Shown here: one piece after another, positions 7,298-60,645 of the stretch
Numbering within the stretch: position 1 is the stretch's first letter
Layout of the letters: every line of letters starts with the position of its first letter
Virus record (IMG/VR): IMGVR_UViG_3300037493_006316
Span: 22,224 to 86,223 of that record
DNA: 64,000 nt
Direction: 5' to 3' (one strand)
DNA from: a virus
Notes under the pieces: generated by a model
Databases searched by the model: none
Told to the model about the DNA's origin: nothing
Seen by the model: only the letters and a program-made list of their open reading frames with translations
Program-made: the position numbers and the translations under genes

Positions 7298-7368
7298 CAG
7301 AACGCCCGTGCGCCGGGATGCCGCAGCCCATCACACCGTCACCCACAACCAACCCAAACGGAGCCTCA

Positions 7369-7854
7369 ATGCTAACCACGGCTTTCGCCCTGGCCTCCTA
7401 CATACACGCGGGCCAACGCTACGGCAACCGTCCGTTCATCAGCCACGTCATCGACGTGCACGAAGTCATCGCCGCGCTCTACCCCGACGACGTCGAGCTT
7501 CAGGCCGCCGCCTACCTCCACGACGCCATCGAAGACGCCCCTGAAGGCATGGACGCGCGGCAGATGATCGCCGTGCGCTGCGGCGCCGGTGTGCTCGCCT
7601 TGGTCGAGGCCGTCACCGACGAGCCCGGCGAGACCCGCGCCGAGCGCAAGGTCAAGACCCTGCCGAAGACCGCCGCGGCCGGCTGGCGCGCGGTGGCCCT
7701 GAAGCTGGCTGACCGCAGCTGCAACATGCGCGGCCAGGCCCACGCCGCCATGTACCGGGCCGAGCTGCCCGCCTTCCGCGCCGCGCTCTTTCCGGTCACC
7801 GCTGAGCGCCCCGAGTTGGCGCCGCTGTGGGCCGGGCTGGGGGTGGTGTCGTGA
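7369..7854 (+). CDS. RelA/SpoT-type HD hydrolase (Mesh1/small alarmone hydrolase-like)
   Basis: HAGQRYGNRPFISHV, AAYLHDAIED, LVEAVTD, LKLADRSCNMR; GGAG RBS. Confidence 0.85.
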   Translation: MLTTAFALASYIHAGQRYGNRPFISHVIDVHEVIAALYPDDVELQAAAYLHDAIEDAPEGMDARQMIAVRCGAGVLALVEAVTDEPGETRAERKVKTLPKTAAAGWRAVALKLADRSCNMRGQAHAAMYRAELPAFRAALFPVTAERPELAPLWAGLGVVS

Positions 7855-8609
7855 TCGCCTGGATTGCCACCGACAACTCGGATGGCGGCCCGCTCGCCTT
7901 CGACCATGACTTTGTGGCCATCGCCGAGGGCTACGAGCGCCTCGGCTACGAGGTCAAGGCCCTGCGGACCACGATCAACCCGCACCAGACCCGCCCGGTG
8001 GACATGGGCGGGGTGACGGCCGAGACGCCCGTGGTCGGCGACCTGCGGCTGCTGCCGCGGCTGGTGACCGCCCTTGGCGGTCGGTGGGAGCCGATGCCGT
8101 CGTGGCCGGAGCAGCTCCGGTACTACATGCGCCGCGACCTGTCCGAGATCCGCGCCGAGGATGCCATCGACCGCATCCTCAACGGCGAGCGCCTGTTCCT
8201 GAAGCTCGATCACAAGTGGCTGCCGGGCGCGATCTACGACCTGGGCAACGTCGAGGCGCTGATGAACATCCACGAGGGTACGTTGCTCATGCGGTCGGAG
8301 ATCGTTGACTTTGCGGCTGAGTGGCGCATCTTCTACGATGAGCACGGCGAGGTGGAGCACATGGCGCAGTATCGCGGTGAGGCCCATCCCATCGGTGACG
8401 CGCACTTCGAGCACGTCCGGTCGGCCGGCAAAGCCTTCGGCCGCGCTCCGGCCGGGCTCAGCATTGACTTCGGCGTCACGCGCGGCTGGCACCTGCGCGT
8501 CGTCGAGGCGCACGCCGGGCCCGCCCTGGGGCTCTACGGCCTGCCCCCGCTTCTGGCTGCCCAACGGCACCTCCGCGCATGGCGCGCGTGCTTCGAGGTG
8601 GCGCCATGA
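7851..8609 (+). CDS. ATP-grasp protein (R2K/DUF4343-like)
   Basis: LFLK, SEIVDFAAEWRIF, IDFGVT, VVEAHAGPALGLYG; GTGA coupling. Confidence 0.7.
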   Translation: MIAWIATDNSDGGPLAFDHDFVAIAEGYERLGYEVKALRTTINPHQTRPVDMGGVTAETPVVGDLRLLPRLVTALGGRWEPMPSWPEQLRYYMRRDLSEIRAEDAIDRILNGERLFLKLDHKWLPGAIYDLGNVEALMNIHEGTLLMRSEIVDFAAEWRIFYDEHGEVEHMAQYRGEAHPIGDAHFEHVRSAGKAFGRAPAGLSIDFGVTRGWHLRVVEAHAGPALGLYGLPPLLAAQRHLRAWRACFEVAP

Positions 8610-9022
8610 CGCCCTGGGTCGCCCTCCTGGCCATCGACGACGACCGCGACCGCTACGCAGAGCTGGCCCGCCGGCTGGCGCCGCACCGCGTGGCGGTGCT
8701 GGTCATGCACGAGGTCACCCGCGTCGAGCGGCGCCTGTCGACCGCGTCGACCGCGCTGCCCCTGGTCGGGATCTTCCTCGACCGAGACATGCCGGAGCGC
8801 GTGGGCGAGGACTGGGTGGCGCACCTGCCCGTCGATCTGCCGGTGTGCGTGTCGAGCGCCAACCGGGCCATGGCTCGGGTCGTCGCGGCGCGCCTGCGCG
8901 GCCGGGGCATCCACCACGTCGTGATGAGCGCGCTGGACGCCTCGCCCGAGTGGCCGTGGATGGGGTGGGCGCTCGACGTGGTCGGTCGACATCGGCTTGC
9001 GGCCGCCCAGGCCCCGCGGTAG
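8606..9022 (+). CDS. cyclic-phosphate-processing receiver-like domain protein
   Basis: LLAIDDDRDR...IFLDRDM...GEDWV...VSSANR matches the LDD.R / LDHDLG / G.D / HSAN pattern; ATGA coupling. Confidence 0.6.
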   Translation: MTPWVALLAIDDDRDRYAELARRLAPHRVAVLVMHEVTRVERRLSTASTALPLVGIFLDRDMPERVGEDWVAHLPVDLPVCVSSANRAMARVVAARLRGRGIHHVVMSALDASPEWPWMGWALDVVGRHRLAAAQAPR

Positions 9023-32727: not shown

Positions 32728-33534
32728 TCAGGCCTTGAGGGACTTGTTGAGGGCCTCGCGGATCGCCGCGTCCGTCGCGGCGTCAGCGGAGAAGACCCCG
32801 TTGAACTTGAACTTGACGGCTGCGTCGGGCGACAACACGCCCTGCTCGACACCCTTGCGCAGGTCTTCGTCGCTGAAGGCAGCGGGCGCAGACTTGCCCT
32901 CGGTGCCCATGCGGGCCGCGGCCGCCGCGGGGGACGACTGCAGCGAGGTGCCGGCCGGGACGCCGGCGGGGCGCGTGGTCATCGACTTGACCAGCGGATC
33001 GACGATGCTCTCGCCGAGCTTGGCCAGCGCGAGGTGGCCCGCGCCGACCAGGGTCTGCAGCGCTGCGTTCTCGGCGCGCACAACCTGAAGCTCGGCACGA
33101 ATGACGGCGATGTCGGCCGCGTTGGTGGCAGAGGCGTCGGTGACGCTCTTGGCGAGAGCTTGCAGGCTGGCCGTGAGGTTGGCCACAAGCTCGGTGGCGT
33201 CGACATAGGCCTGGCCGTCGGCGCCCTTCTCGAGGTCATCGTAGCCGGCCTCGCTGCCGGGTTTCTCCATGTCCTCGTCGGACTTGGCGTCGCCCTCCTC
33301 CTTCTCGACGTCAGGCATCTCCTTGCCCTCGTCGCCCTTGTCGTCGGACTTGGCCTTGTCGTCGGCGTCGTCGCTGTCCTTGTTCTTGGCCATGTCCTCG
33401 GTCTTGTCCTCGGCCTTGCCGAGTTTCAGCAGGCCGAGCATGTCGCCCAGGCCCTGCTTGAGGCCGGCGCCAAGCTCGCGGCCGATGAGGGCGAGGCCGG
33501 AGCGCTCAAGCTCCGTGGGGGTGATGTCAGGCAT
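32728..33534 (-). CDS. capsid scaffolding protein
   Basis: Acidic/Lys low-complexity region plus coiled coil, between protease and capsid; many LxK[AGS] motifs. Confidence 0.65.
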   Translation of the reverse strand: MPDITPTELERSGLALIGRELGAGLKQGLGDMLGLLKLGKAEDKTEDMAKNKDSDDADDKAKSDDKGDEGKEMPDVEKEEGDAKSDEDMEKPGSEAGYDDLEKGADGQAYVDATELVANLTASLQALAKSVTDASATNAADIAVIRAELQVVRAENAALQTLVGAGHLALAKLGESIVDPLVKSMTTRPAGVPAGTSLQSSPAAAAARMGTEGKSAPAAFSDEDLRKGVEQGVLSPDAAVKFKFNGVFSADAATDAAIREALNKSLKA

Positions 33535-34276
33535 GGACGGCTCCGGCCGCGACGATGGCCGCGGCAATCTCAGGGGTGTAGCCCCGCGTTTCAGCCAACA
33601 GCCGGGCCACCTCGGCTCGGCGAAGAGGATCGGCCAGCTCGGCCCGACTCAGCGGCGTGTCAAGCGTCAGCCGGCGAGACAGCGCGAGCGGCTGGGCGGT
33701 CGCCTGGGGGTTCATCGGGATGGAGCACACCGCGGCCTGCGTGATCCGCGCACCGACGATGGTGTTGTTCCGCACCTTCGACTGGCCGTGCGCCGAGAAG
33801 CCGATGCCGCGACCCAGGGCCTCAATGGACTTGGCGAGGCCCCAGTACATGGACGCGCGGCCGAGCTCAGCCTCGGTGGGTCGCAGCGGCGCCGAGGGCT
33901 GCGGGATGGCGCCCCAGATGTCCGCCGGACGCCCCTTGGCGAACTGCTCCCAGGACGCCGGGTCGTCGCCGTCGAAGAGGTGACCCTCGGTCCACAGGCC
34001 GACCTTGCCGTGCTCCCGGGCGAGCGGATGGTCGGGCCCGCAGAACTCCAAGAAGGTCGGCACGCCCACGAACGTAGGCCGGTGCTCGTCGTTCCAGAGG
34101 CCCCAGCCGATGTAGGGCGCGAGGTCGACGGCGTCGACGCTGCCGCTGGCGAGGAAGACCTGCCCCTCGCGGTCGGACACCGGCCGCAGGCTGCCGTCGG
34201 CCATGATCTCGTGCGAGGTCGCCAGCCAACCGCCAAGGGGCCGCGTGGGGGTCCACGAGGCCTTGCGCAGGTCCAT
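33527..34276 (-). CDS. prohead protease (start uncertain)
   Basis: WNDEH, GLWTEGHLF, YWGLAKSI..LGRGIGFSAHG, AAVCSIPMNPQAT parallel the SPO1/Twort protease motifs (NYEH, LGFSIEG, PANP). Confidence 0.8.
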   Translation of the reverse strand: MDLRKASWTPTRPLGGWLATSHEIMADGSLRPVSDREGQVFLASGSVDAVDLAPYIGWGLWNDEHRPTFVGVPTFLEFCGPDHPLAREHGKVGLWTEGHLFDGDDPASWEQFAKGRPADIWGAIPQPSAPLRPTEAELGRASMYWGLAKSIEALGRGIGFSAHGQSKVRNNTIVGARITQAAVCSIPMNPQATAQPLALSRRLTLDTPLSRAELADPLRRAEVARLLAETRGYTPEIAAAIVAAGAVHA

Positions 34277-34305
34277 GAGGGCGGCGGACTTCAAGCGTGG
34301 ACCCC

Positions 34306-34349
34306 AAAACGACGAAGGCCCACCGGCCGCCCGTAGGCGGTCGTGGGCC
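34306..34349 (-). terminator. hairpin with cUACGg tetraloop and U-rich tail
   Basis: ggcccac-ga-ccgcc-tacg-ggcgg-ccg-gtgggcc then ttcgtcgtttt on - strand. Confidence 0.5.
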
Positions 34350-34382
34350 GTTGCTCTCGGTGGAGCGGCTGCTGCTGCCAGA

Positions 34383-34646
34383 CTACGGCGTGCCCGTCGG
34401 CCTGTCAACCCCAACGCGCACCACAAGGCGCCTGCGGGGCGTAGGCGCGGCCGGCGCCGGCGGCATAGTCAGGGCCAGGAAGGGCAGCGGAACGACCTCA
34501 GAGCACCTGTCGCCGGGGCACCGCAGGCTCATGGAGCCGTCGGCCTCCACGCGCAGCATGGCGCCCGCGAAGGTGAGCTGACCCGACCGCACGGCCGAGA
34601 TGGGCGTGCTGCAGCGGGGGCAGCGTAGGCGGAAGGGGTCGTCCAC
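34383..34646 (-). CDS. small zinc-ribbon protein (Com-like)
   Basis: LRCPRCS...LRCPGDRC; GAGG before GTG 34646. Confidence 0.6.
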   Translation of the reverse strand: MDDPFRLRCPRCSTPISAVRSGQLTFAGAMLRVEADGSMSLRCPGDRCSEVVPLPFLALTMPPAPAAPTPRRRLVVRVGVDRPTGTP

Positions 34647-34678
34647 GTGGCCTCGCGGGCGCAGGCTATCGCGAGACG

Positions 34679-35482
34679 TCAGCCGATGTGGCGGATGTCG
34701 GGCCAGATCAGCGCCGCCCGGCGGTAGGTCGCCGGCCACCAGCGTTGCAGCCACTGGAAGTGCAACTCGGCCATGTAGGTGTCGAGCCCGACGACGAACC
34801 ACGAGTGCCGCATGGCCAACGCGTCGGCGCCGATGTCGATGCAGCCGTAGACCGGGTGCAGCGGCACCTTGTTGGCCCACAACATTGCGTGCACGTCCAG
34901 CGCGGTCCACGCCCGCAGAGGCGCGGCGCGCCAGGTGCCGTCGGCGATCTGGTAGAACGCGCCGCGCGACCACAGCAGCATGCGGCGGCGCTTGTTCTCC
35001 TCGGCGCGCAGGCCCCAGAACATCGAACGCCCCGCGCGTGTGCGGTTGGCGGCATCGAACCAGGGCCCGGACAGCGCGCCGCGGCGCTGGTCATCGGTGG
35101 AGCCGTCGAGCGGCCGCGAGGTGTCGATCTGCACCCACGGCAGCTCCAGCGAGCATTCGACCTCGAGCGCAACACGCTGCAGGTAGGTCTCCTCTCCCTC
35201 CCAGCACAGATCGTCGCGCAGCGACAGCAGCGGCACCCGAACGCCGGCCTCTCGCAGGATCAGCGCCAGCGCCGTCGAGTCCTTGCCGCCGGACACGCTG
35301 GCCTGCCAGGCGTCTGCTCGGGTCATGGCTGAGCGGACCACGTCAACGGCCTCGGCGCGGCGCCGGGCGAACTCGCGGCTGTTCGCGTGAAGCATCACCT
35401 GCCGCGCCGGGTAGCGAACGCCCCAGTCGTCGCGGTCGGGCATCGGGCCGTCCCACCAGCCCTCAAGCGCCTCACGCCGCAT
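34679..35482 (-). CDS. cysH: CysH-like / PAPS-reductase-family protein (type IV-B associated)
   Basis: PP-loop SVSGGKDS, WGLRAEENKRR, PLRAWTALDV...VPLHPVY; no C-terminal ECG motif of true sulfate-assimilation CysH. Confidence 0.85.
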   Translation of the reverse strand: MRREALEGWWDGPMPDRDDWGVRYPARQVMLHANSREFARRRAEAVDVVRSAMTRADAWQASVSGGKDSTALALILREAGVRVPLLSLRDDLCWEGEETYLQRVALEVECSLELPWVQIDTSRPLDGSTDDQRRGALSGPWFDAANRTRAGRSMFWGLRAEENKRRRMLLWSRGAFYQIADGTWRAAPLRAWTALDVHAMLWANKVPLHPVYGCIDIGADALAMRHSWFVVGLDTYMAELHFQWLQRWWPATYRRAALIWPDIRHIG

Positions 35483-36218
35483 GCAGCACGCCCCACCCTT
35501 CGCTCCGATGGGCCCCCAGCGCAGTGTGCGGCGGCAGCACGGCGTTGCAGACGAAGTCGCAGACGAAGCCCACGGCGCGCGCGCCTTGGCCGCGGGCTGG
35601 CCGCTCGAAGGACACCGGCACCAGCCGCAGCGTCGACGAGTCGATGACGACGTGGGGCACGATGGACTGCCGCAGCACGCCGAGCTCGCCCAACAGCGTC
35701 ACCACCGCGGCCGACAGGTAGTGCCCAGCCCAGGCCAGCTCGAGCATGTCGTTGCCGCGCGGGCGCCGCTGATCCACGACGCTGCTCGGGAAGATCGGCG
35801 ACCGCAGGCTGTAGCGCCGCCAGGACTTGCCCAGGTACTGCGCGTCGGTCTCGCCGACCTCAAGCTCGCACCCGCGCACCTCGAGGACCTCGCCGGCCGG
35901 CAGGCGCAGAGCGCGCACCCGGCCCAACAGCGCGGCGTTGGTCGCGGCCCGCGGCCCGACGAAGTACAGCTCGGGCACGTCAAACACGCGGTAGTGCACC
36001 TCGGACGGGCGCGCCGACGACTGCGCATCGTCGCCGTGGTTGTGCCACGACACGGACGCGCCGCAGAGGTCCTCGATCTGCTTGACGACCGCGCCGCGCA
36101 GGATGCGCGCCGGTTTGCGCCGCCAGTCGCAGTCGAGCCGCGCCAGCGCCCAAGGGGTGCGGCGCACCCAGGGGTAGCCCTCGACCTCGGCGCCGAGCGG
36201 CGGCAGCTCGGGCGTCAC
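35472..36218 (-). CDS. Cas6-like RAMP protein
   Basis: C-terminal Gly loop LGAHRSEGWG (GxxxxxGxG), YSLRSPI, GFVCDFVCNAVLP; N-terminal ILRGAV, WHNH, VHYR; GTGA coupling to csf3. Confidence 0.65.
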   Translation of the reverse strand: MTPELPPLGAEVEGYPWVRRTPWALARLDCDWRRKPARILRGAVVKQIEDLCGASVSWHNHGDDAQSSARPSEVHYRVFDVPELYFVGPRAATNAALLGRVRALRLPAGEVLEVRGCELEVGETDAQYLGKSWRRYSLRSPIFPSSVVDQRRPRGNDMLELAWAGHYLSAAVVTLLGELGVLRQSIVPHVVIDSSTLRLVPVSFERPARGQGARAVGFVCDFVCNAVLPPHTALGAHRSEGWGVLHAA

Positions 36219-36877
36219 CGCGACACCGTCTGCCAGCACGCCACCGCGCGCCCCACCTGGTGGTAGGGCGGCCGGGTTGGCACGAAGGTTTGCCGCACGC
36301 GCCCACGGGGCAACTCCGCCACCGCGTCGACCGGCAGGTGCCGCAGGCGCACCTCAGCGGCGTAGGCCGCAAGCTCAGGCCCGCCCGGGTCGTCGATGAC
36401 CTCCCAGCGGCGCACCCAGCCCCACCCGTGCGTGCGGCGGGCTCCGATGCCGTCGATGTAGCTGAGCGCCGTCGCAATGGCCTCGGGATCACCGATGCAC
36501 GTCCACGACACCTCGTTCATCTCCACCCGCGAGTAGAGCGGCACCCGGAGGCTCTTGTCCGGGCCGGCGCCGCTGTCGATGTTGCGCACGCCGTCGAGCA
36601 GCTCGGCGATGTGCCCCGCGTGCCGGCGGTGCGCGTAGCTGAGCGCCTCCATGCCGTGGAGCACCGCCTGCGACGCGGCCCACCACCAATCGCCCCCGGC
36701 CTCGACCCGGGCGAGCGGCAGGGGCAGCGCGTCGGCCTCGTCGAGGTCCATGATGCCGCCCGGCAAGTTGTGGCAGGCCACCTGCGCCACGCCGGCGAGA
36801 AGCAGCCCGTCGAGCATCGGCGGCACCTTGAGCAGCGCGGGCTGCGCAAGGTGCGCGGTGACCCTGAGCTTTCTCAC
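36215..36877 (-). CDS. csf3: type IV CRISPR effector Cas5 (Csf3)
   Basis: LRVTAHL, MLDGLL, LPLPLAR, WWWAASQ, GPDKSLRVPL, WTCIGD, IGARRTHGWGWV, PTRPPYH; AAGGAG RBS. Confidence 0.85.
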   Translation of the reverse strand: MRKLRVTAHLAQPALLKVPPMLDGLLLAGVAQVACHNLPGGIMDLDEADALPLPLARVEAGGDWWWAASQAVLHGMEALSYAHRRHAGHIAELLDGVRNIDSGAGPDKSLRVPLYSRVEMNEVSWTCIGDPEAIATALSYIDGIGARRTHGWGWVRRWEVIDDPGGPELAAYAAEVRLRHLPVDAVAELPRGRVRQTFVPTRPPYHQVGRAVACWQTVSR

Positions 36878-37899
36878 AGGTTCAGCTCCTTGCGGATCTG
36901 CTCCGCGTTGGCCCGCACGTGCTCCGCGTAGGCCGTGGCAAAGGCCTCGGCCGACGGGTCGATGCTCTCGGCGTGCTCGAGGGCCTCGGCGGACGCGACC
37001 GTGACCGGCACCGGGCCGCCCACGCCCCGGGTGCGGCTGGCGACGGCGATCCGCACCGCGCACTGACCGTGCCCCTTCGAGGACGCCCCGCCCAGGTGCG
37101 CCCCGCTCGAGATCCAGCGTGTCAGCGCGAGCATCAGGCAGGCGGCTTCGTTGTCGGTGGCGTCGGTGAGCCGGATGGTGCACACCATCGGCGTTCCGGG
37201 CGCGATGGCTTGGAACGCGTGGGGCATGCTCTCGTTGGCCTCGCGGCGCTCATCCTTGCCAGCCGCCTTGCCCTTCCGGGCCGCGGCCGCGTCCTCGATC
37301 TGCCGGAGCTCGGCCGGGGGCAGCAGCGCCGCGGCGTGCGAGGTCTTCAGGTCGTGCCGGTAGTAGGTGATCGGCGTGGGGCTCTCGATCAGGTGGTGCG
37401 GCAGAGGCGGCTGGCCACCGAACAGCAGAGGCTTGAGCCCGGCGGCGCCGACGTCGATCAGGCCGCTGCCCACCGTCAGGTCGGTGTAGGGCATGACCGT
37501 CGAGACCTGCACACGGCCGCGCATGATCATCGCGCCATCCATCGCGCCAAAGACGCTGAGCACGGGCAGCAGGTCGCGCATGCGCCGGGCCTCGTCGAGG
37601 TTGGCCACGCGGTCGCTGCCCTCCATTTTGCCGCCCTTGAACAGCAGGCGCAGGCCGTCGCGGTTGACCTCGGAGATGCCTGCGAGCTGCAAGAACAGCA
37701 GGCCCGCGTGCTCGCGCAGGGTGGCCTTCATCGCGGCGCCGGACACGCAGGCGACGTCCTCCTGGCCCCAGCGGCCGTCGCGACAGACGTTGAGCGTTCG
37801 GCGGTGCAGCTCTTGCTCGTTGCCGTTGTTGCCGGCCCCATGGGTCAGGGCCGTGCGGGGCGTGATCTCGAGCACGAAGGTGTAGCTGTGGCGGGTCAT
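36874..37899 (-). CDS. csf2: type IV CRISPR effector Cas7 (Csf2)
   Basis: TALTHG, VSGAAMKATLR, LLFKGG, LPVLSVFGA, MRGRVQV, YYRHD, MPHAFQAIAPGT, HLGGASSKGHG; AAGGAG RBS, ATGA coupling. Confidence 0.88.
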   Translation of the reverse strand: MTRHSYTFVLEITPRTALTHGAGNNGNEQELHRRTLNVCRDGRWGQEDVACVSGAAMKATLREHAGLLFLQLAGISEVNRDGLRLLFKGGKMEGSDRVANLDEARRMRDLLPVLSVFGAMDGAMIMRGRVQVSTVMPYTDLTVGSGLIDVGAAGLKPLLFGGQPPLPHHLIESPTPITYYRHDLKTSHAAALLPPAELRQIEDAAAARKGKAAGKDERREANESMPHAFQAIAPGTPMVCTIRLTDATDNEAACLMLALTRWISSGAHLGGASSKGHGQCAVRIAVASRTRGVGGPVPVTVASAEALEHAESIDPSAEAFATAYAEHVRANAEQIRKELNL

Positions 37900-38402
37900 T
37901 CGGTCTCCTTGGCGTAGGCGCGGACCTGCCGCAGCCAGTCGATGAGCAAGCCGGTGGCCTGGATGACCTGCTCCATGCCCTCCCGGCTGCGGAGGGTGGT
38001 CCAGGTGTCGAGGCCGAGCTCCTGCCCGGCGCCGGCGGTGCCGCAGGCCCTGCGCCACCACAGAGCGCTCTCTGCGTGCAGCGCGTCGCCGCGGCAGCCC
38101 AGGCCTTGCAGGACGTTCAGGCCCCAGGCCTCGAGGCTGTGCGAGCGCGAGCGCGCGCCGCGCATGCGGGCGCCCAGCCGCTCCTGCGCCTCGAAGCCCT
38201 TGAGGCTCTTGAGGTTGCCGGTCGTGTAGCCGGCCCGCCAGGCGAGCACCCCGAAGTAGGCCGGAGCGATGACCTCAGCCGAAAAGGCTGAGCTGTCGTC
38301 GAGCAGGCCCGTCGGCACGAGGGCGCGCAGCAGGTGCGTCGCTCTCTCGGGCTCGCTCAGGGGCTTGAGGTACTCCAGCGCCGGGGTCGGCAGCTCGATC
38401 AT
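37896..38402 (-). CDS. small alpha-helical subunit, Cas11/Csf4-like by position
   Basis: 168 aa helical protein between csf1 and csf2; AGGAG RBS before ATG 38402. Confidence 0.6.
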   Translation of the reverse strand: MIELPTPALEYLKPLSEPERATHLLRALVPTGLLDDSSAFSAEVIAPAYFGVLAWRAGYTTGNLKSLKGFEAQERLGARMRGARSRSHSLEAWGLNVLQGLGCRGDALHAESALWWRRACGTAGAGQELGLDTWTTLRSREGMEQVIQATGLLIDWLRQVRAYAKETE

Positions 38403-39453
38403 GGATGGGCTCCTGCGGCGCGGGCGCCGCCTTGGGGGTGACGGGCGCCGGGGGCGTGGCCCTGATGGCGTCGGTCGACGGGCGGATGGCCTCGGCCAGC
38501 TCAAGCAGCGCCGAGCCGCGCCAAAGTCGGATGATGGGGTCCCAGGTGCGCGCCGCCAGCACGATCTGCGCGTCACCGCGAGGCCGATAGGCGCCGCTGA
38601 GCACCTCTTCGGGGTGCGCGCCGGCGCGGATCAGCTCTTCCATCGCCCGCAGCACGGCGGCCAGATCGGCAGGCGCGTAGCAGACGAGGCCCGGGCCGTT
38701 GCAGTAGACGCTCTGCACCTCGACGCGCCCGTCGCTGATGGGCGCGAGGTAGGCGCAGTGCTTCTGGCCGTCGCCCATGCTGAGCGACCAGGGCGCCGCC
38801 GGGGGGTTGAGCAGCACGCCGCGGATGACCTCGCGGTCGGCCGGGCGCTGAGCCTTGAGTGCGTGCCAAGCGCCGTCGATGACCAGGTGGTCGTAGTTGC
38901 GGAACTTGCCCACCATGGCCGCGCCGACGTCGGCCTCATCCAGCGTCGCCAGCAGCGGCAGCTCGGGCGGCATCGTCGACAGGTCGCCGCCGGCGGCCGC
39001 TGCTCGAGCCGCAAGCCAGGCCGCCTCAAGCGGCGCGCCGCGCTTGCCCTGTGGCGGCCGCGCGAAGACGTAGACCGTCGAGCCGGGCCCGCGGCAGATG
39101 GATGCCTTCGCGCCGCGGTCGCCGCCGAGGCTCAGCGAGACCTTGCCGTCGCCGTCGAGAGCCGCCTGCAACTGCGGCGCCCAGACCGCGCGCGGCAGGC
39201 TCACCCAGTCGGACAGCGACCACCCGCAGGCGTGGCAGAGGAACGCGCTGTCGAGGATGGCGGGCCCGCGCGGGATTGTCGCGTGGAAGCTGTCTGGCAG
39301 CGTCGAGATCGGCCGGCCGGAGCCGCCCAGGTCAACGCCGCACCACCAACACCCGGCGCCTTGCGGCGCGGGCTCGGCCTGCTCTGCGGTGGGGCGACCG
39401 GCGGCGCGCCACATGAGCGCGACGCCGGTCCTGGGGCTGGTCGAGGGCTTCAT
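38275..39453 (-). CDS. csf1: type IV CRISPR large subunit Cas8-like (Csf1)
   Basis: CWWCG...LCHAC Zn finger, FRNYDHLV..GAWH, LLNPPAAPW, GDGQKH; C-terminal QLSLFG. Confidence 0.8.
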   Translation of the reverse strand: MKPSTSPRTGVALMWRAAGRPTAEQAEPAPQGAGCWWCGVDLGGSGRPISTLPDSFHATIPRGPAILDSAFLCHACGWSLSDWVSLPRAVWAPQLQAALDGDGKVSLSLGGDRGAKASICRGPGSTVYVFARPPQGKRGAPLEAAWLAARAAAAGGDLSTMPPELPLLATLDEADVGAAMVGKFRNYDHLVIDGAWHALKAQRPADREVIRGVLLNPPAAPWSLSMGDGQKHCAYLAPISDGRVEVQSVYCNGPGLVCYAPADLAAVLRAMEELIRAGAHPEEVLSGAYRPRGDAQIVLAARTWDPIIRLWRGSALLELAEAIRPSTDAIRATPPAPVTPKAAPAPQEPIHDRAADPGAGVPQAPERARESDAPAARPRADGPARRQLSLFG

Positions 39454-39468
39454 GCCCTCTGCGTAATC

Positions 39469-40758
39469 TCAGGCCCCGGAGGGTGCAACGAGAGACCAGT
39501 CCGCCGGGCCCGCCTTCGGCCCGGCCTCCCACCGGATCTTGTCCTGCCGGGCCAGCGCCGGATCGCCCACCACGCCCGCGCGGGCGCCGCCCGGGTCGCG
39601 GCCGGGGATCTTCGCGACGGGGCGCAGGCCCTTGTCGGCGAGAGCCTTGTAGGTCGCGCCCTCCTCGCTGCTCAGGCTGTAGGTCACCAGCTTGCTGGGC
39701 ACCGCACGCGCAGCGAGCTGCCAGACGTCGAGCACCCGGGCGACCAGCTTGCTGGCCGCGCCCTTGACCGTGCCGTCGGTCGCCACCCGGGTCAGCTCCA
39801 CGACGCCGTGCGGGTCCGCGTACCGCGCCGTCGGGGCGTTGCAGACCGCAACACCCACAAGCCGAGCGCCACGGGCGACCCCGATGCAGAACAGCAGCCC
39901 GCGCGGGTTCGCCTCGGGCAGTGCGCTATGGTGCCGCTGCACGAAGTCGAAGGCGTCGCGCTTGCTCACCGGAACCAAGCGCAGTTCGGCGTCATCGCTG
40001 AGACTGTCGACCAGCACGGCCAGGGCCGCCCACTCCGGGAGCTCGAAGCCGTCGCCGATGGTCTTGCCGCCGCGGCCCGCGCCACCCACGCGCCACCGCC
40101 AGTCGGGCTCGTGTCGGCCCCAGACGTGAAGCGCCAAGCAGGTGACCAGCACCGCCAGATCAGCTTGCTCAACCGCGCTCAGCTCGCGGCCCGCTGCGTC
40201 CTGACCGGGCACGCCGACCAGCTCGGCCAGGGTCCACGCGTCGGGCTCTTCATAGGGGTCGTCGGGGTCGTCGAGGTCGTCGACCTGCCCCATCTCGCGG
40301 TCCCACGCCCACTTCATCTCGGGCTCGTTCATCATCGCGTGCGCCAGCGACAACATCGCCGAGGCCATGCCGAACGCGCGCACGTCGGCGTCGGGCAGCG
40401 GACGGAACGCCCGCGTCCCGGGCACGGGCTCAGCTACCGCGCCGAAGCGGTCATGCAGCGTGACGGGGGCGGCCTGGAACATCGTGGCCTGGGCGCCGAC
40501 GGCGCCGCGGAAGCGCTCGGCGTCCCCCATGGCCTCGACGTCGGACGCGAACCGCCCCTCGATCACCCCGTCGCGCCGCAGCTCGTAGCGGAGCGCAGCC
40601 TTGACGAGGTCCACATCAAGCCGGTTAGCCACAGCCACCACGAACGACGCGCCGTGGCGCCGGACCGTCCAGGTGCCGTCTTCCTGTCGCCGCCAGGGGT
40701 CGTCGCGCAGGCCGTCGAGCTTGGCCTCGCGGGGCAGGATGTGCAGGCGCATGGTCAC
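39469..40758 (-). CDS. Mom/XF1762-like GNAT DNA-modification protein with unknown N-terminal domain
   Basis: DAFDFVQRHHS, FCIGV, LVGVAVCNAPTAR, VELTRVATDG, AASKL, LVTYSLSSEEGATYKA, KIRWE. Confidence 0.75.
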   Translation of the reverse strand: MTMRLHILPREAKLDGLRDDPWRRQEDGTWTVRRHGASFVVAVANRLDVDLVKAALRYELRRDGVIEGRFASDVEAMGDAERFRGAVGAQATMFQAAPVTLHDRFGAVAEPVPGTRAFRPLPDADVRAFGMASAMLSLAHAMMNEPEMKWAWDREMGQVDDLDDPDDPYEEPDAWTLAELVGVPGQDAAGRELSAVEQADLAVLVTCLALHVWGRHEPDWRWRVGGAGRGGKTIGDGFELPEWAALAVLVDSLSDDAELRLVPVSKRDAFDFVQRHHSALPEANPRGLLFCIGVARGARLVGVAVCNAPTARYADPHGVVELTRVATDGTVKGAASKLVARVLDVWQLAARAVPSKLVTYSLSSEEGATYKALADKGLRPVAKIPGRDPGGARAGVVGDPALARQDKIRWEAGPKAGPADWSLVAPSGA

Positions 40759-41345
40759 CGCCGAGGCCGGGTTGCGCGGAGGGCGCCCTCCATCGCCGCG
40801 GCCTGTTTGAGGACCTCGTCATAGCGCGCTGGGTCGTGCGATACCACGCGCTGCAGCGCGCTCATCGCCTCGTCGTAGGCGCGAAGCATGGCCGCGGGCG
40901 GCATTTCGCCGCGCTCGATCAGCGGCATCATCTCGGCGCGCCGCAGCTCGACGGCGGCCGCCGCCTCGACGTCGTCGCACAGAGCCACCGGCGGCGCGAA
41001 GGCTGCCAGCGAGAGCTGCGCCGACCCGACGCGCACCGGCTCGCAGCCGTCTGGGCGCGGCTCGAGCGCCAGCTGCTCGCCCTTCGGCTCACCCGTGCCG
41101 GCCGGCGGCGCCGGCGGCAGGCGCCGCTCTGTGGGCACCCGGCCGTGCGGCCGCACCGTCACCGCGCCAGCCTCCGTGCGCCGGACGTGACCCCGCACAG
41201 GCACGCCGGGCGCCTTGGGGATGGGCAGCAGCGCCAGCGGGCGCCCAGGGCCCGCCACGCGCACTGCGGCGCCCTCCAGGCCCTGGGGCGTCGCCGGCGC
41301 CGTCGCGGCAGATTCCGCCTTGCGCAGCACGAGGCGGGCCTGCAT
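40755..41345 (-). CDS. probable internal head protein
   Basis: N-terminal LVLRKA; basic VRGHVRRT..G.VTVRPHGR motif; TGATG coupling. Confidence 0.5.
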   Translation of the reverse strand: MQARLVLRKAESAATAPATPQGLEGAAVRVAGPGRPLALLPIPKAPGVPVRGHVRRTEAGAVTVRPHGRVPTERRLPPAPPAGTGEPKGEQLALEPRPDGCEPVRVGSAQLSLAAFAPPVALCDDVEAAAAVELRRAEMMPLIERGEMPPAAMLRAYDEAMSALQRVVSHDPARYDEVLKQAAAMEGALRATRPRR

Positions 41346-43438
41346 CAGTCCTCCACGGTGGCGTAGCCGTAGGCGGCGAACGCGCTCACGCTGCGGTCGG
41401 GAATGGCTTCGACGGCAGCCCACTGCTGCTCGGCGACCTCGACAACGCGAGCGAACTCGGCCTGCGCCGGGGTGTTCTGGTACGTGTCGCCCGTGGCGAG
41501 GATCACCAAGCGGATCTGCTCGCCGCCCACCTCGAGCTTGTCGTTCAGTCCCAGCGAGGCCTTGGTCCCAAACACCTTCCGCGCATGCGCGGTCGGCTCG
41601 TCGGCGCCGAACACCCTGTCGAGCACGTCGCGCGTCGGGCACTCGCCGACCCGCATGGTCAGCGTGCGCGTCGCCGGGCTCCAGTCCATGCCCACGAGGT
41701 GACCCTGCAGGCCCCCGGGCTCGGGCTGCACCCACCCGTCGGACTCGGCCGAGGCCCAGGCGTCGGCAGCAGCCGCCTGCGGGCGGCAGTCCTTGAGCCC
41801 CCGCGCCGCGCCGGCCAGGCGCCGGGCCAGCCGCACGGCCAGGGTCTCACCCTGCTTGCTCGGGCCCAGGAAGCGCAGCCGCGCGATGCAGTCCCGGGCG
41901 GTCTCGGCCGCGGCGAGGTCCTCCATCGCCTTCGTCGCCCACAGGTGCGTGGCGCCCTCCATGCGGAAGGCGGACGCCACAGGGTCGCCGGCCTCGATGT
42001 CGAGCCGGGCGTGGCCCTCGATCCAGGCCGCCGGAACCGACACGGGCTCGTCGCCCAGCAGGGCGCTCACCGCCTCGCGCATGGCCCAGGACGCGGCGCA
42101 CTGCGCGCGCCAGAGGTTCGCGCTGGCCCGGGGGTGCAGGGCATCGTCGAGCGCGCCGGCGCGGGTCGCCGGCAGGGTGTAGGCCATGTCGTGGCTCACC
42201 CAGGCGATGAGCGCCGCGGCGCGCGGGCCGGCGGCGATCTCCATTGCGTCGAGAATGGCCGCAAGGTGCATCATCCCGGCGTGAATGTGCCGCGCACCGC
42301 GGTCGGCCTGCCGCGCGCGCCAGGCTTCGACCTCCTGGTGGAGGATCTTCTGCGCAACGTCGGCGATGATGACCGCCGCAGTGATCGGCGCCACCTGCGC
42401 CATAGCCAGGGCCCGCGCGACCTCGGTCACCGCCTTGGTCGCCCGCCCCGCGTTGGTCTGGTCGATCCAGCCCGCGGTCACCGCCTCTGCGAAGTAGCGG
42501 CCGGCTTGGCTGGCGATGGAGTACCCGGGCTCAATCTCGATGGGGTAGCGGCGCGCCATCTCGGCTTGCACCACGGTCCAGTCGGCCGCGGCGTCCACCC
42601 GCTCGGCCGGGCCCATGGTGGCCCACCCGGGCGGCAGCTTGAACGGGGCATCGGCGAACTCCAACCCGTCGCCCCACGTCGCCGCCGACACCGACTCGGA
42701 CGTGCTCACCGACTCAGAGCTGTCGTCGTCGTCGCCGAGCTCCTCGCCCACCTGCGCCCACTGGTAGGTGCCGTGGGCGGCCTTGACGGACTGGCCGCCG
42801 ACGTCGACCGTCAGGCCCATGCCGCCGACACCGGTGATCGTGCCGGCGCGCTGCTTGCCGTCGACCATGACGAGCACCGTCTCGCCCTGGGCCTTGGCCA
42901 GGCGCTCGGCGATGGCGCTCGGGCGGTCCAGGCGCGGGATCGTGCCCCCGGCGCGCAGCAGGTTGGCCAGCTCTTCGGCCGGCCACGCGGTCAGGCCGTG
43001 GAAGAACCCGCCGGCCGTGTAGGCGCTGCGGTAGAGCGCCTCGGCGTCGGCCGCGCTGGCCACCCCGATCACGACCTTGTCTTCGTCGATGGCCTGCGTT
43101 CCGGGGTGCTTCTGGTGCACCACGAAGGCCATCGGAGCTCCGAGGTCCGGCCCGACGAAGACGTCGACCGGATCGCCGTCGAGCGCGCTAATGGTGCCGG
43201 CCACCTCGCCGTAGTGCGCGGGCATCGTCACCCGCCAGCCGGGGCCGCTGCGGTCCTCGCCCTCGGCCGTCTCGATCAGCAGGGTCAGACCGCGCCAGAG
43301 CAGTGAGCCGACGTAGGGGTGCTCTTCGCGCCCGGGCGTCGGCGCCGGGGGCGGGAGCAGGACCGGGCTCTTGCGTGCGCCGCGGCTGTCGGCGAGCCGC
43401 TGCACCGCGCTTGGATCGAACACGTTGCGGCCCCTCAT
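41345..43438 (-). CDS. polyvalent protein: inorganic-pyrophosphatase-like domain plus HD-like domain
   Basis: HYGEVAGTISALDGDPVDVFVGP...VVHQ...DEDKVVIG; later DRGARHIH, SHDMAY, HPRASA. Confidence 0.7.
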   Translation of the reverse strand: MRGRNVFDPSAVQRLADSRGARKSPVLLPPPAPTPGREEHPYVGSLLWRGLTLLIETAEGEDRSGPGWRVTMPAHYGEVAGTISALDGDPVDVFVGPDLGAPMAFVVHQKHPGTQAIDEDKVVIGVASAADAEALYRSAYTAGGFFHGLTAWPAEELANLLRAGGTIPRLDRPSAIAERLAKAQGETVLVMVDGKQRAGTITGVGGMGLTVDVGGQSVKAAHGTYQWAQVGEELGDDDDSSESVSTSESVSAATWGDGLEFADAPFKLPPGWATMGPAERVDAAADWTVVQAEMARRYPIEIEPGYSIASQAGRYFAEAVTAGWIDQTNAGRATKAVTEVARALAMAQVAPITAAVIIADVAQKILHQEVEAWRARQADRGARHIHAGMMHLAAILDAMEIAAGPRAAALIAWVSHDMAYTLPATRAGALDDALHPRASANLWRAQCAASWAMREAVSALLGDEPVSVPAAWIEGHARLDIEAGDPVASAFRMEGATHLWATKAMEDLAAAETARDCIARLRFLGPSKQGETLAVRLARRLAGAARGLKDCRPQAAAADAWASAESDGWVQPEPGGLQGHLVGMDWSPATRTLTMRVGECPTRDVLDRVFGADEPTAHARKVFGTKASLGLNDKLEVGGEQIRLVILATGDTYQNTPAQAEFARVVEVAEQQWAAVEAIPDRSVSAFAAYGYATVED

Positions 43439-59032: not shown

Positions 59033-60645
59033 CGGGCCGCCTGTGCCGACTGATCGGCCTCATCGTCGAACCAGGCGGCCACGAAGGCGGCCTCCTGCGC
59101 CGGCGTCGGGGCGAACGGATCGAAGGCCACCCCAGCGGCCTTGGCGAAGACCTGGGCCACTCGCAGGCGCTGAGCGGTGCCATCGGGCGTGGCCGCCGCT
59201 TGGGCCCACTCCGACCGCGCCTGCCTGCGGACCTCCAGGCCGGCGCTGGCCGGCACCCGCCGGCGGGCGGACAGGTACGAGGTCCACGCCTCGAGGCTCG
59301 CGCTGTCGTGGCCCAGGGGCCGACCGCCGGTGTCCCAGGCCTGTGCGGCCTCGAGGTTGCGGTCGACCTCGCGGAGGATCACCACGAAGTCGGGCGCTTG
59401 GCCGATGGGCTGCGGGTACTGAGGCGAGGTCGCCATCCATCGCCGGTTGCTCGGCGAACGCAGCATGAACGCGTGGACGAGGTCAATCTCGTGCCCCCGC
59501 GCCACAAGCTCCTGGGCCAGATCGGCCCGGGCGGCGAGGGCCTCGGCGGCGGTGACCGCTGCCGACAGGCCCGACTGCCGGGAGTCCAGGCGCAGCAGCG
59601 CCTTGGCCATGGCCGCCACGCTGGCCTGCGCGAACGACTCGCGCGGGGTGCCGCCCATGCCGAACACTGCGCGCCGGCGGCTGTCCAGGCGGGCCAGCAC
59701 TGTCTCGGCGCAGGCCACCACCGCGGCCTCCACCTCGGCCCGCGGCGCCCGCACAGCGCGACTGCGCGCTGGCAGGGTCTGCCCCCCTGCCACCAGCGTG
59801 AGCACCGGCCGGCAGGGGGCCTCGACGACCTCAAGCGCCTCTGGCGCTGGCGCGGCCGCCACGGGCTCTGCGGGCTCCTCCAGGCGCGCCTGGGCCTCGT
59901 GTGGGGCCTCCGGCTGGGCCTGCGCCATCGGCTGTGCCGTCAGGGCCGCCAAGGCAGCCTGCAGGCTGCCCAGCTGGGCCTCCAGGCGCCTGCGGGCCTC
60001 GCGCTCCGCTTCAAGCTCTGCCCTCAAGCTCTCGACGATGTCCATCAGCCCTCCGGCCGCGTCAGCGGCGGGGGTGGCGCCGACAGGCGCAGGGGGCGTA
60101 GCCCCCTTTGGGCCCCGGCCCCGAGCTCTATGTGTGAGGGGTTCTTGGAGCGGGTTGTATGGAGCGGGTTCGGTGCCACCGTGTGGCATACCCCCCTGCC
60201 ACCGCGTGGCAGCCCCCCTGCCATCCTGTGGCATACCCCCTGCCACGGGGCCGGGCTCCTCTGCCACCGCGCGGCAGGGGTCAGCGACCGTGGCAGGGGT
60301 GCCACGGCGTGGCAGGGTCAGGCGCTCGGCGCGCAGCTGGGCCACGCACTGCAGGCGGTCGGCGTCGAGATCGACCGTGCACCGCAGCGGCTCCCCGCGA
60401 CGCTGCGGCCGCTTGAGGAGCACGCCAGCCTCGAAGAGCAGGCGGCGCTCGGCCTGCACCTTGCCGCGGCTGGCCCGCGCGGCCTCGCACAGGTGCTTCA
60501 GGCCGGGCCAGGACTCACCCTGCTCTACTGGCAGGGTCGACGACTGGCAGGCGATGTACGCCCGCATGATCGCCACCTGAACCAAGCTCAGCGGGGCCCT
60601 GTCGAGCAGGTCGTAGGCCTGCAGCCGGGTCAGGGGCGCGCTCAA
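59029..60645 (-). CDS. replication initiator (lambda O-like, N-terminal wHTH); start uncertain, 60645 or 60756
   Basis: SWPGLKHLCEAARASRGKVQ...LFEAGVL HTH; internal iterons; ATGA-coupled to dnaB. Confidence 0.7.
   Translation of the reverse strand: MSAPLTRLQAYDLLDRAPLSLVQVAIMRAYIACQSSTLPVEQGESWPGLKHLCEAARASRGKVQAERRLLFEAGVLLKRPQRRGEPLRCTVDLDADRLQCVAQLRAERLTLPRRGTPATVADPCRAVAEEPGPVAGGMPQDGRGAATRWQGGMPHGGTEPAPYNPLQEPLTHRARGRGPKGATPPAPVGATPAADAAGGLMDIVESLRAELEAEREARRRLEAQLGSLQAALAALTAQPMAQAQPEAPHEAQARLEEPAEPVAAAPAPEALEVVEAPCRPVLTLVAGGQTLPARSRAVRAPRAEVEAAVVACAETVLARLDSRRRAVFGMGGTPRESFAQASVAAMAKALLRLDSRQSGLSAAVTAAEALAARADLAQELVARGHEIDLVHAFMLRSPSNRRWMATSPQYPQPIGQAPDFVVILREVDRNLEAAQAWDTGGRPLGHDSASLEAWTSYLSARRRVPASAGLEVRRQARSEWAQAAATPDGTAQRLRVAQVFAKAAGVAFDPFAPTPAQEAAFVAAWFDDEADQSAQAAR
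60174..60314. repeat. iteron array / probable replication origin
   Basis: Palindromic TGCCAC-N3-GTGGCA units at 60174, 60197, 60219, 60241 (half), 60262, 60281 (half), 60300; 19-23 bp spacing. Confidence 0.8.

Follow-up and report, generated by a model that had tools for sequence, protein, structure and literature searches.

Of all CRISPR subtypes, type IV-B has the least understood function. In reviews it is described as having neither an array nor a processing enzyme, and the source of its RNA is treated as the key open question (PMC8175902, PMC11656645), and the only solved IV-B complex (JS623) is reported to have been assembled on random RNA (PMC7937560). The Csf operon considered here belongs to a complete freshwater phage genome of 86,223 bp, of which a stretch of 64,000 nucleotides, hereafter the window, was analysed; positions are those of the window unless stated otherwise. 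A preliminary description had pointed out a Cas6-like gene between csf3 and cysH, which raises the question of whether this gene encodes a genuine Cas6 and, if so, on which RNA the protein could act. The locus is a new variant of type IV-B that keeps a Cas6-type gene; its features are collected in Table 1.

Table 1. Features of the Csf locus and of the two hairpin-containing elements discussed in the text.
Feature	Position	Strand	Assignment
XF1762-family / Mom-like gene	39469..40758	minus	NCBIfam XF1762_fam E 2.3e-20, above cut-off; PHROG 'Mom-like DNA modification protein' E 4.5e-14
csf1 (large subunit of type IV)	38275..39453	minus	PADLOC Csf1_0_IV E 3.3e-12
Small protein in cas11 position, 168 aa	37896..38402	minus	Position and size only
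csf2 (Cas7 of type IV)	36874..37899	minus	PADLOC Csf2_0_IV E 1.1e-40, from residue 59 of long ORF
csf3 (Cas5 of type IV)	36215..36877	minus	PADLOC Csf3_0_IV E 2e-30; NCBIfam cas5_csf3 E 3.7e-15, below cut-off
Cas6b-like gene	35472..36239	minus	255 aa from GTG 36239; 248 aa from GTG 36218
cysH-like gene (PAPS-reductase family)	34679..35482	minus	Pfam PAPS_reduct E 3.7e-8, 34 bits, above cut-off; PHROG PAPS reductase E 1e-11
Cys-rich small ORF after cysH, 87 aa, two CxxC-type pairs	34383..34646	minus	Conserved in window, L001, L004 and L007 (alignment)
Promoter, leader, hairpin and T-run	34302..34408	minus	Sigma-70-like TTGACA, 17 nt, TAGTCT; about 27 conserved nt; GC hairpin 34317-34349
Degenerate two-unit element	genome 8440-8640, outside window	minus	Hairpin units ending in Cas6b-type tag

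The Cas6b-like ORF is a real gene, as judged by its GC content at codon positions (0.93 at the third, 0.51 at the second) and by its relatives. It had been described as an ORF of about 248 aa at 35472-36218, and this is correct: the codon at 36218 is GTG, and all of the quoted strings are present (WHNHGDD...VHYRV, YSLRSPI, GFVCDF and ...LPPHTALGAHRSEGWGVLHAA). GTG 36218 forms a GTGA overlap with the csf3 stop (36215-36217), as is also seen elsewhere in the operon (ATGA at 37896-37899 between the cas11-like gene and csf2, and GTGA at 36874-36877 between csf2 and csf3), and the 248-aa model is therefore at least equal to the 255-aa model. At the other end, the stop of the Cas6b-like gene is overlapped for 11 nt by the cysH-like gene, which starts at ATG 35482. 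A reading as a chance ORF or a pseudogene was rejected because of the intact frame, the third-position GC, the conservation and the coupling.

Both neighbours named in the preliminary description were confirmed by profile matches, Csf3 in PADLOC and PAPS reductase in Pfam (Table 1). The csf3 ORF is open back to 37183, but translation probably begins at GTG 36877, which overlaps the stop codon of csf2; the PADLOC and NCBIfam matches of Csf3 both begin at about residue 104 of the long ORF. As a separate observation, Csf3 is mislabelled as Cas6 in the T. nautili plasmid record. For its part, csf2 likely starts at ATG 37899, in overlap with the stop codon of the gene for the 168-aa small protein. 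This protein is 75% identical to the copy in the relative locus L001, has no match in Pfam, NCBIfam, PADLOC or PHROG, and reached a probability of only 2% in hhalign comparisons with 12 Cas11 proteins from canonical IV-B loci, so that a Cas11 identity is unsupported. The XF1762-family / Mom-like gene ends 15 nt ahead of csf1 and occupies the same site in L001 and L004. A 436-aa protein encoded two genes upstream has a 49-residue PHROG 'helicase' match only, with no match in Pfam.

The gene order of the Csf operon recurs in the relative loci L001, L003 and L004. In L005, csf3 and a PAPS-reductase-like gene stand on either side of the family member (47% identity), and the distant member P0043 was called as a Csf3-Cas6-like fusion. 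The Cas6b-like gene is a built-in member of the Csf operon, which consists of csf1, a putative small subunit gene, csf2, csf3, the cas6b-like gene and the cysH-like gene. Generally, the locus agrees with the description of type IV-B: csf1, csf2 and csf3 are present, a cysH-like gene is adjacent, and the locus has no helicase gene, adaptation genes or adjacent array, none of the eight proteins encoded between 33527 and 40758 matching a helicase or Cas1/2 model in Pfam, NCBIfam or PADLOC. The Cas6 that it encodes is the point of difference from the subtype description, and the locus is therefore best called a IV-B variant.

The protein was modelled with AlphaFold (AF2), and the fold assignment, made on a single model of pLDDT 69 and pTM 0.69, is that of Cas6, in agreement with the double-RRM fold that had been proposed as a check. 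The best match in a VIA structure search was Cas6b (4z7k_B; Z 16.4, rmsd 2.5 A, 183 residues aligned), and Foldseek also placed Cas6b at the top (4z7k_A; E 2.2e-11, target-normalised TM 0.78). Places 1-13 of the VIA search, which was representative-wide, are all Cas6 entries. Foldseek returned 39 matches at E<=1e-3, and all but one among those listed are Cas6-family proteins (Cas6, Cas6b, Csf5, Cse3) or effector complexes containing such a protein. Model residues 26-255, predicted to form two tandem ferredoxin/RRM-like domains, align to Cas6b, Csf5, Cas6 and Cse3 chains with Z from 16.4 to 8.2.

At the sequence level, the family profile matched Cas6b in the PDB with E 1.1e-10 over profile positions 110-244. 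Pfam Cas6b_C (E 5.4e-4; 20.6 bits, below the gathering score of 39.4) and the PADLOC Cas6 model (E 8.1e-6) matched residues 217-253 only, NCBIfam gave no match, and no Cas6 model matches the N-terminal half of the protein by sequence. Since the curated Pfam and NCBIfam models were not passed, the homology is based on the match between the family profile and Cas6b and on the fold. Taken together, profile and predicted fold identify the protein as a true member of the Cas6 family, as the preliminary description had proposed from the C-terminal glycine loop; it is apparently closest to the type I-B enzyme Cas6b. The family is absent from the curated models tried (Pfam, NCBIfam, PADLOC, PHROGs), and pipelines relying on these collections would label such loci plain IV-B.

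A word-indexed search found seven relatives with 47-99% identity, and an exhaustive search found 65 cluster representatives at E<=1e-3; about 58 further clusters, at E<=3.1e-17, are counted in the family. Across seven sequences down to 47% identity, 85 columns are invariant. The family is small and so far known from metagenomes only: the 10 members looked up all come from Logan, ENA and JGI metagenomes, and a tblastn search of the protein against plasmid and phage collections gave no match. Nor did any relative turn up in two pattern scans over 185,579 species genomes, a result that depends on short patterns and is weak evidence of absence. Meanwhile, the family profile matches every metagenomic relative tested but none of 13 sampled canonical IV-B loci (12 plasmids and the Skermania phage SPI1) at E<=10. 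Within the loci sampled, the Cas6b-like family thus appears restricted to the present IV-B variant. The earlier statement that canonical IV-B loci lack Cas6 holds for these 13 loci; however, Pinilla-Redondo et al. mention 12 uncharacterised IV-B loci with Cas6 (PMC7038947). Some of the latter may belong to the present family, or may be cases of Csf3 mislabelled as Cas6. Of the two outcomes that the preliminary description had named as refuting, a predicted fold other than RRM/RAMP and a gene commonly carried by IV-B loci, neither was observed.

Our preferred reading, which we hold with roughly even confidence, is that the protein is the Cas6-family subunit of a phage IV-B-like Csf system and likely cuts phage RNA to load a defined guide. 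RNase activity, the identity of the substrate and loading into Csf are inferred. Several motifs are consistent with this reading. The glycine loop LGAHRSEGWG at residues 241-250 follows the Cas6 pattern G-h-G-x5-G-h-G and is covered by the Pfam Cas6b_C and PADLOC Cas6 matches; G242, G248 and G250 are each kept in 43/44 family members. Cas6b has two catalytic histidines, H38 and H40, with HxH spacing, and the phage protein has an HxH motif at WH66-N-H68. The structural alignment begins with model residue 26 at chain residue 1, placing H38/H40 near residues 64-68, and H66/H68 are putative equivalents of the catalytic pair; they are equated by chain position and not by superposed atoms, because the pLDDT of the HxH loop (residues 62-79) is below 50.

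The same residues bear on an alternative in which a Cas6-fold RNA-binding subunit does no cutting, but caps the Csf filament or recruits Csf to a hairpin, for example the promoter-proximal hairpin after cysH and the Cys-rich ORF, with no array involved. HxH occurs in 27/44 family members, and the other 17, with R or K at the second position, would fit a protein that does not cut, as would the solved IV-B complex, reportedly built on non-CRISPR RNA (PMC7937560). However, H66 and H68 are invariant in all seven close relatives, that is, in the clade of the window itself, and Y83 (44/44) and R84 (42/44) are kept family-wide. As for the hairpin, 300 nt downstream of cysH all four aligned phages have a conserved promoter, followed by a 27-nt leader and the hairpin; both promoter hexamers are kept, their spacer varies, and the hairpin interior co-varies. 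On the other hand, the element stands directly ahead of the ATG (34276) of a head-protease gene, with the hairpin and T-run between the promoter and the head genes, a layout that, in our view, resembles the terminator of a late promoter, as in lambda PR'-tR'. Its fold of -38.4 kcal/mol is no better than that of shuffled sequences (z only -1.29), and a Cas6b-type tag is absent. Rfam models gave nothing for 33000-41000 at E<=1, and the 27-nt leader has no targets in the genome beyond those of shuffled controls. We consider the non-cutting alternative unlikely.

The preferred reading calls for a phage-encoded RNA. An array had been reported as not visible, and this is borne out for ordinary arrays, both in the window (TRF) and genome-wide (exact 12-mers at a spacing of 40-110 nt over 86,223 bp); however, a cryptic two-unit candidate lies outside the window, 13.6 kb ahead of its start and about 48 kb from the csf locus. 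The units end in AUUGAGAC and AUUGAAAC, of which one equals the 8-nt tag of Cas6b and the other is one letter off; in two organisms, Cas6b leaves a 5' tag identical to AUUGAAAC (PMC3479195). ATTGA[AG]A[CG] occurs four times in total over both strands of the 86-kb genome, and two of the copies stand 72 nt apart on one strand, each directly after a hairpin. These two copies fall within the 120 nt of lowest GC content in the genome (0.51 versus 0.717). DNA contigs from other lake metagenomes include the region of the element, with an identity of about 95-96% and no change at either tag among the matches listed, although two of these contig sets (X5 and X6) are identical and may be one data set. 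A TTGAAAC at window position 2904 was dropped as a tag, lying inside an apparent lower-GC coding stretch.

The near-identical repeats and unrelated spacers of a CRISPR array are not what the element shows, and it was missed by the exact 12-mer screen. The two 'repeats' agree in the last 9-11 nt only and are about 45% identical over 37 nt, the two 'spacers' have a common layout (CCCA..AGTGCC..AAAAT) and palindromes, as in a duplicated regulatory region, and one of the hairpins is scored as a terminator when read on the plus strand. No spacer target was found in the phage itself or in 50,697 phage records, and 72,556 plasmid records gave nothing beyond one 23-nt match (E 4), which was taken as chance. 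The element was not found in any other operon-carrying phage covered, the only larger relative among them being G001, a 29.7-kb fragment; IMG/VR contains no second exact copy of the last 20 nt of unit 2, and the upstream DNA of L025 and L026, relatives recognised by the neighbouring AAA-ATPase gene, is unrelated to it. Judged from its sequence, the element would be a degenerate mini-array at best, and it is plausibly the best candidate substrate of the Cas6b-like protein.

Cas6 enzymes cleave repeat RNA without a metal ion, 8 nt from its 3' end. Contacts between Cas6 and Csf are largely mediated by RNA. If the preferred reading is correct, the Cas6b-like protein would bind a specific phage-encoded RNA and cut it 8 nt ahead of the end of the repeat-like element. 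The cleavage would leave a crRNA with an AUUGA(A/G)AC 5' tag for Csf3, Cas6 would be retained on the 3' hairpin, and the Csf2 backbone would assemble on a defined guide instead of random RNA. A more elaborate form of this proposal is possible, though we lean against it: this freshwater phage lineage may use IV-B as a fixed-guide device, in which the private Cas6b-like enzyme would cut two hard-wired crRNAs from the degenerate remote mini-array, Csf3 would read AUUGA(A/G)AC, and Csf would deliver the CysH-like enzyme, possibly along with the Mom-like one, to one or two low-GC, conserved nucleic-acid targets within the host or a competing element.

The phage Cas6 might instead act on host pre-crRNA, either by piracy, putting host spacers into the phage Csf, or as counter-defence by mis-processing or sequestering. 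A phage without an ordinary array and a Cas6b-like ancestry, which suits hosts with I-B-type repeats, agree with this; scavenging or sponging of crRNA has been proposed for IV-B in reviews (PMC8175902, PMC7038947), and host crRNAs are described as being bound by Cas6 of transposon-borne systems (PMC11656645). However, IV-B is reported to be negatively correlated with host CRISPR systems (PMC7038947), and in a single experiment IV-B complexes reportedly took up no co-expressed I-E crRNAs (PMC7937560). Moreover, the phage encodes its own element with the right tag, and the closest cultured phages are only 22-31% identical in the capsid protein. Action on host pre-crRNA therefore seems improbable to us. 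Finally, Cas6 is thought to have been lost in IV-B (PMC7937560), so that intermediates are expected, but the idea that this gene is a relic of an ancestral Cas6, now decaying and functionless, is very hard to reconcile with the intact, translationally coupled gene, its third-position GC, its invariant columns and its many further family clusters, and was already disfavoured.

A IV-B variant with its own Cas6 and a candidate tagged RNA makes the question of the guide source testable at the bench, and could help to find the guide RNA of type IV-B. If the fixed-guide reading is true, this would be the first defined IV-B guide RNA, and hence a route to IV-B function.

Among known systems, Cas6b of type I-B (M. 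maripaludis, PDB 4z7k/4z7l) is the best structural match of the phage protein and the only PDB protein significantly matched by the family profile. The two have the glycine loop in common, the HxH that follows helix 1 of the phage protein is a putative counterpart of catalytic H38/H40, and the candidate substrate of the phage ends in the Cas6b tag. In contrast, the phage protein is 12-15% identical to Cas6b, its N-terminal half is unrecognisable by sequence, it is extended by about 25 residues at the N-terminus, the loop that follows HxH is longer, and its gene stands in a type IV operon in a genome without a normal array. Csf5/Cas6 of type IV-A (PDB 6h9h, 6njy, 7xfz, 8rc3) likewise serves a type IV Csf complex as its Cas6 subunit, but its fold match is weaker than that of Cas6b (Z 12.5 for 6h9h, 11.3 for 8rfj, 9.4 for 6njy), and the phage protein matches no PADLOC type IV Cas6 model at E<=0.1. 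In type IV-A, DinG and an adjacent array are present, and cysH and Cas11 are missing, whereas the phage locus has cysH and a protein in the cas11 position but neither DinG nor an adjacent array. With canonical IV-B (Mycobacterium sp. JS623 pMYCSM02, Rhodococcus plasmids and Skermania phage SPI1), the locus shares csf1, csf2, csf3, a gene in the small-subunit position, a PAPS-reductase-family gene, the lack of cas1/2, helicase and adjacent array, and the location on a mobile element. However, csf3 leads directly into cysH in SPI1 and Cellulosimicrobium, the phage Csf2 is too diverged to find any plasmid by tblastn at E<=1e-5, and the putative phage small subunit does not match canonical Cas11. 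The IV-B system of the Bathyarchaeia 'Fuxiviridae' viruses is also described as virus-encoded, with a cysH-like gene next to csf3 and a two-repeat mini-array (PMC10541130). There, the array lies inside the locus and the word Cas6 is absent from the text of the paper, whereas the phage has a Cas6 and a degenerate candidate array about 48 kb off.

The virus record, of which the window makes up bases 22224-86223, is complete (86,223 bp with 127-bp terminal repeats, 71.7% GC, CheckV completeness 100), and its csf genes form a tightly packed minus-strand run within the head-assembly block, flanked upstream by a minor-head-protein-like gene and downstream by protease, scaffold-position and capsid genes. 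The extra gene between csf3 and cysH, noticed in the preliminary description, was confirmed; the ORF is present with every peptide string quoted there. The operon junctions read ATGA, GTGA and GTGA, followed by an 11-nt overlap into cysH, as is typical of genes whose translation is coupled. Since it is the start at 36218 that takes part in this coupling, the 248-aa model is no worse than the 255-aa ORF. The csf genes are bracketed by two possibly nucleic-acid-modifying enzymes, one Mom-like and one CysH-like. The Mom-like gene retains its place before csf1 in two metagenomic relatives (L001 and L004), and in the window and in L001, L004 and L007 the conserved small Cys-rich ORF directly follows cysH.

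Features and compared loci (window positions unless stated otherwise)
Feature	Position	Strand	Remarks
697-aa protein	41345-43438	minus	lies two genes upstream of csf1; N-terminal 'Inorganic Pyrophosphatase' domain (PF18823, E 1.4e-24), plus hits to minor-head and DarB-like PHROGs
XF1762/Mom-like gene (GNAT-fold)	39469-40758	minus	family match; 3' end 15 nt before csf1
csf1	38275-39453	minus	
168-aa ORF in cas11 position	37896-38402	minus	assigned by place
csf2	36874-37899	minus	
csf3	36215-36877	minus	
Cas6-like gene	35472-36218 or 36239	minus	
cysH-like gene	34679-35482	minus	PAPS-reductase family
small Cys-rich ORF, 87 aa	34383-34646	minus	two Cys pairs (zinc-ribbon-like); directly after cysH
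promoter-hairpin unit	34302-34408	minus	sigma-70-like promoter (TTGACA, 17 nt, TAGTCT), 27-nt leader, GC hairpin, T-run
repeated 22-nt stretch	6634-6673 and 7256-7297	plus	one mismatch; each runs into a GC hairpin; copies ~620 nt apart among plus-strand genes
tandem palindromes	60174-60317		TGCCAC..GTGGCA type; period 22 and 19
degenerate two-unit element	genome (G000:C1) 8440-8640 = L009:641-841	minus	flanked by a 127-aa gene and a gene for an AAA-ATPase (Pfam AAA_5, E 4.7e-16)
L001 and L004			72-73% identical; entire block, XF1762-like gene through capsid gene; probably the same phage sampled in two collections
L003			80%; block cas11 to cysH
L007			89% over 19 matched residues; gene end, then cysH, head genes
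L005			47%; csf3, family member, start of a PAPS-reductase-like gene (E 2.8e-4, narrowly missing Pfam's cut-off)
L006, lower-GC phage fragment	L006:230-4390		45%, last 55 residues only; then radical-SAM gene, MmcB-like gene, large terminase; no cysH in that place

Pfam Cas6b_C matched the Cas6-like protein over its last 37 residues only (E 5.4e-4; 20.6 bits, below the cut-off of 39.4), the PADLOC Cas6 match was confined to the last 37 residues as well (E 8.1e-6), and single-sequence searches gave no match in NCBIfam, PHROGs or PDB (phmmer). An AlphaFold2 model was built from seven sequences (pLDDT 69, pTM 0.69). In a Foldseek search against PDB, Cas6b (4z7k) ranked first for this model (E 2.2e-11), and all but one of the entries listed at E≤1e-3 were Cas6, Csf5 or Cse3 chains or Cas6-containing effector complexes. 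When the model was compared, independently of Foldseek, with 48,161 representative chains, ranks 1-13 were Cas6-family entries, with Z 16.4 for Cas6b (rmsd 2.5 Å, 183 residues) and Z 12.5 for Csf5, the type IV-A Cas6; generic RRM folds came lower (Z 6-8). Moreover, a purely sequence-based search of PDB with a profile of 44 family members matched Cas6b (E 1.1e-10; profile 110-244, chain 92-217). Because the fold of the model and the family profile both match Cas6b, the protein is a Cas6 homologue, nearest to the I-B enzyme. A fold other than RRM/RAMP had been named as a refutation of the preliminary description; the predicted fold is that of Cas6 and does not refute it.

The glycine loop (G242, G248 and G250, numbered on the 255-aa model) is retained in 43 of the 44 family members, Y83 in all 44 and R84 in 42. 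The motif W-H66-N-H68 stands after the first helix; since the structural alignment to Cas6b starts with model residue 26 at chain residue 1, Cas6b H38/H40 are placed at about residues 64-68, which is suggestive of an equivalence with H66/H68, in a loop (62-79) modelled with pLDDT below 50. HxH is retained in 27 members, and in the remaining 17 the second position is Arg (15) or Lys (2), usually with another His four residues upstream. Such variation of catalytic residues among Cas6 families is described in the literature.

Seven relatives were found by a word-indexed search of 5.8 billion proteins, and when 1.84 billion cluster representatives were searched exhaustively with a profile, 65 matched at E≤1e-3. 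Besides the window's own cluster, 58 of these representatives lie at E≤3.1e-17; below them come one 74-residue fragment at 7.7e-10 and, from about 1e-6, ordinary Cas6 proteins. Judged by this gap in score, the family is discrete and small. Ten members checked for origin came from metagenome assemblies only; tblastn at E≤1e-3 found no member in 72,556 plasmid or 50,697 phage records, and scans of 185,579 species genomes for short patterns, which are weak evidence, found none. The DNA context was compared at the window and six other places: csf3 lies upstream at all five places with upstream DNA, and a cysH-like gene lies downstream at six of the seven. A distant metagenomic member, P0043 (494 aa), matches Csf3 at residues 1-165 (E 2e-21) and the Cas6-like family at 230-491; this call may be a fusion or a frameshift, and either way the csf3/Cas6-like adjacency extends to a remote lineage.

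The window's Csf2 was too diverged to reach plasmid IV-B loci, but the search did reach Skermania phage SPI1 (KR011061.1), a cultured actinophage. Its orf40-44 (4804-8437), annotated 'hypothetical protein', make up a full canonical set of IV-B genes (csf1, cas11, csf2, csf3 and cysH-like) with no gene between csf3 and cysH. SPI1 Csf2 as query matched 67 plasmids, of which 12 were taken (Rhodococcus, Mycobacterium including JS623, Mycolicibacterium, Gordonia, Frondihabitans, Cellulosimicrobium, Rhodovastum, Thermococcus and Natrinema). The family profile was run at E≤10 against every stop-to-stop frame of at least 60 residues in the metagenomic loci and the 13 canonical loci (12 plasmids and SPI1); it matched the window, L001/L011, L003, L004, L005 and L006, and nothing in any of the 13. 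Commonness of the gene in IV-B loci, the other refutation named beforehand, is thus not borne out in these 13 loci. In the csf3 slot of the T. nautili plasmid (NZ_OX281346.1, 6845-7588), a product annotated 'CRISPR-associated endoribonuclease Cas6' is Csf3 by PADLOC (E 1.7e-50) and scores weakly as Cas6; such mislabelling of Csf3 may account for reports of 'Cas6 in IV-B'. Later reviews repeat, in their accessible text, that IV-B lacks an array and mention no Cas6 there (PMC11656645, PMC12669027), and our literature search for IV-B with Cas6 or cysH found no paper describing the present family. Rare Cas6-bearing IV-B loci are already conceded in the literature.

As the preliminary description had it, no array is visible, and there is no ordinary one anywhere in the 86-kb genome. 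The degenerate two-unit element, outside the window, lies where GC content, taken over 120 nt, reaches its minimum for the genome (0.51 versus 0.717). Its unit ends, c-ATTGAGAC and c-ATTGAAAC, are 72 nt apart; each has a hairpin before it and 34-41 nt of AT-richer sequence after it, and the element finishes with a third hairpin. On both strands of the whole genome together there are only four occurrences of the pattern ATTGA[AG]A[CG]. In M. maripaludis and C. thermocellum, AUUGAAAC is the 8-nt 5' tag of Cas6b-made crRNAs, and the repeats are 37 nt (PMC3479195); with a spacer of 35 nt, a repeat of that length adds up to the observed 72. The presence of two neighbouring tags of this kind in a phage with a Cas6b-like gene is the strongest substrate lead, and we consider it possible, rather than probable, that the element is the substrate of the Cas6-like protein. 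Or else it may be a duplicated regulatory (operator) region, as the common layout and palindromes of its two spacers would suggest. Against a substrate, the two repeats are similar only over the last 9-11 nt, one hairpin scores as a terminator when the opposite strand is read, no target of the spacers was found in this phage or in 50,697 phage and 72,556 plasmid records, and a search that covered a 29.7-kb relative did not find the element in another operon-bearing phage. In other lake metagenomes, contigs contain the element region at ~95-96% identity, and neither tag is changed among the differences listed.

A second local candidate substrate is the promoter-hairpin unit, whose -10 hexamer shares bases with the Cys-rich ORF's stop codon and whose T-run lies just before the protease gene ATG at 34276. 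Its promoter, 27-nt leader and co-varying hairpin are conserved in all four related phages; the hairpin fold is unremarkable (z -1.29), and neither an Rfam match of the unit nor a target of the leader was found. The unit may give a ~70-nt RNA or act as a late-promoter/terminator pair; placed before the head genes, it looks more like such a pair than a Cas6 substrate. Elsewhere in the window, the repeated 22-nt stretches may be terminators or regulatory sites, and the tandem palindromes look like iterons or operators.

The interpretation in the preliminary description is partly supported: by the Cas6 fold and the lack of matches in the canonical loci, the locus is a distinct type IV-B variant carrying a Cas6-like gene, while the function guessed earlier, processing of its own guide RNA or piracy, stands as a proposal from sequence. 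It is not a new kind of system; all its pieces are Cas families, and Cas6-bearing IV-B loci have been conceded. We propose that the Cas6-like protein is the RNA-recognition subunit, and probably also the cleavage subunit, of this Csf system and would fix the guide identity, which is undefined in canonical IV-B. The 8-nt tag would be bound by Csf3 and the guide covered by Csf2 and the small subunit, Cas6 would remain on the 3' hairpin, and the CysH-like enzyme, possibly with the Mom-like one at the operon head, would act at the bound target. A Cas6-bearing variant offers a handle on the RNA of type IV-B and hence on its function. The tag, coat and 3'-hairpin arrangement is established for type I and IV-A complexes, whereas here it is suggested by likeness to class 1 complexes. 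Bathyarchaeia viruses carry a IV-B system with a two-repeat mini-array, in whose description Cas6 is not mentioned (PMC10541130); the system of this phage is likewise virus-borne IV-B, but with a Cas6-like gene.
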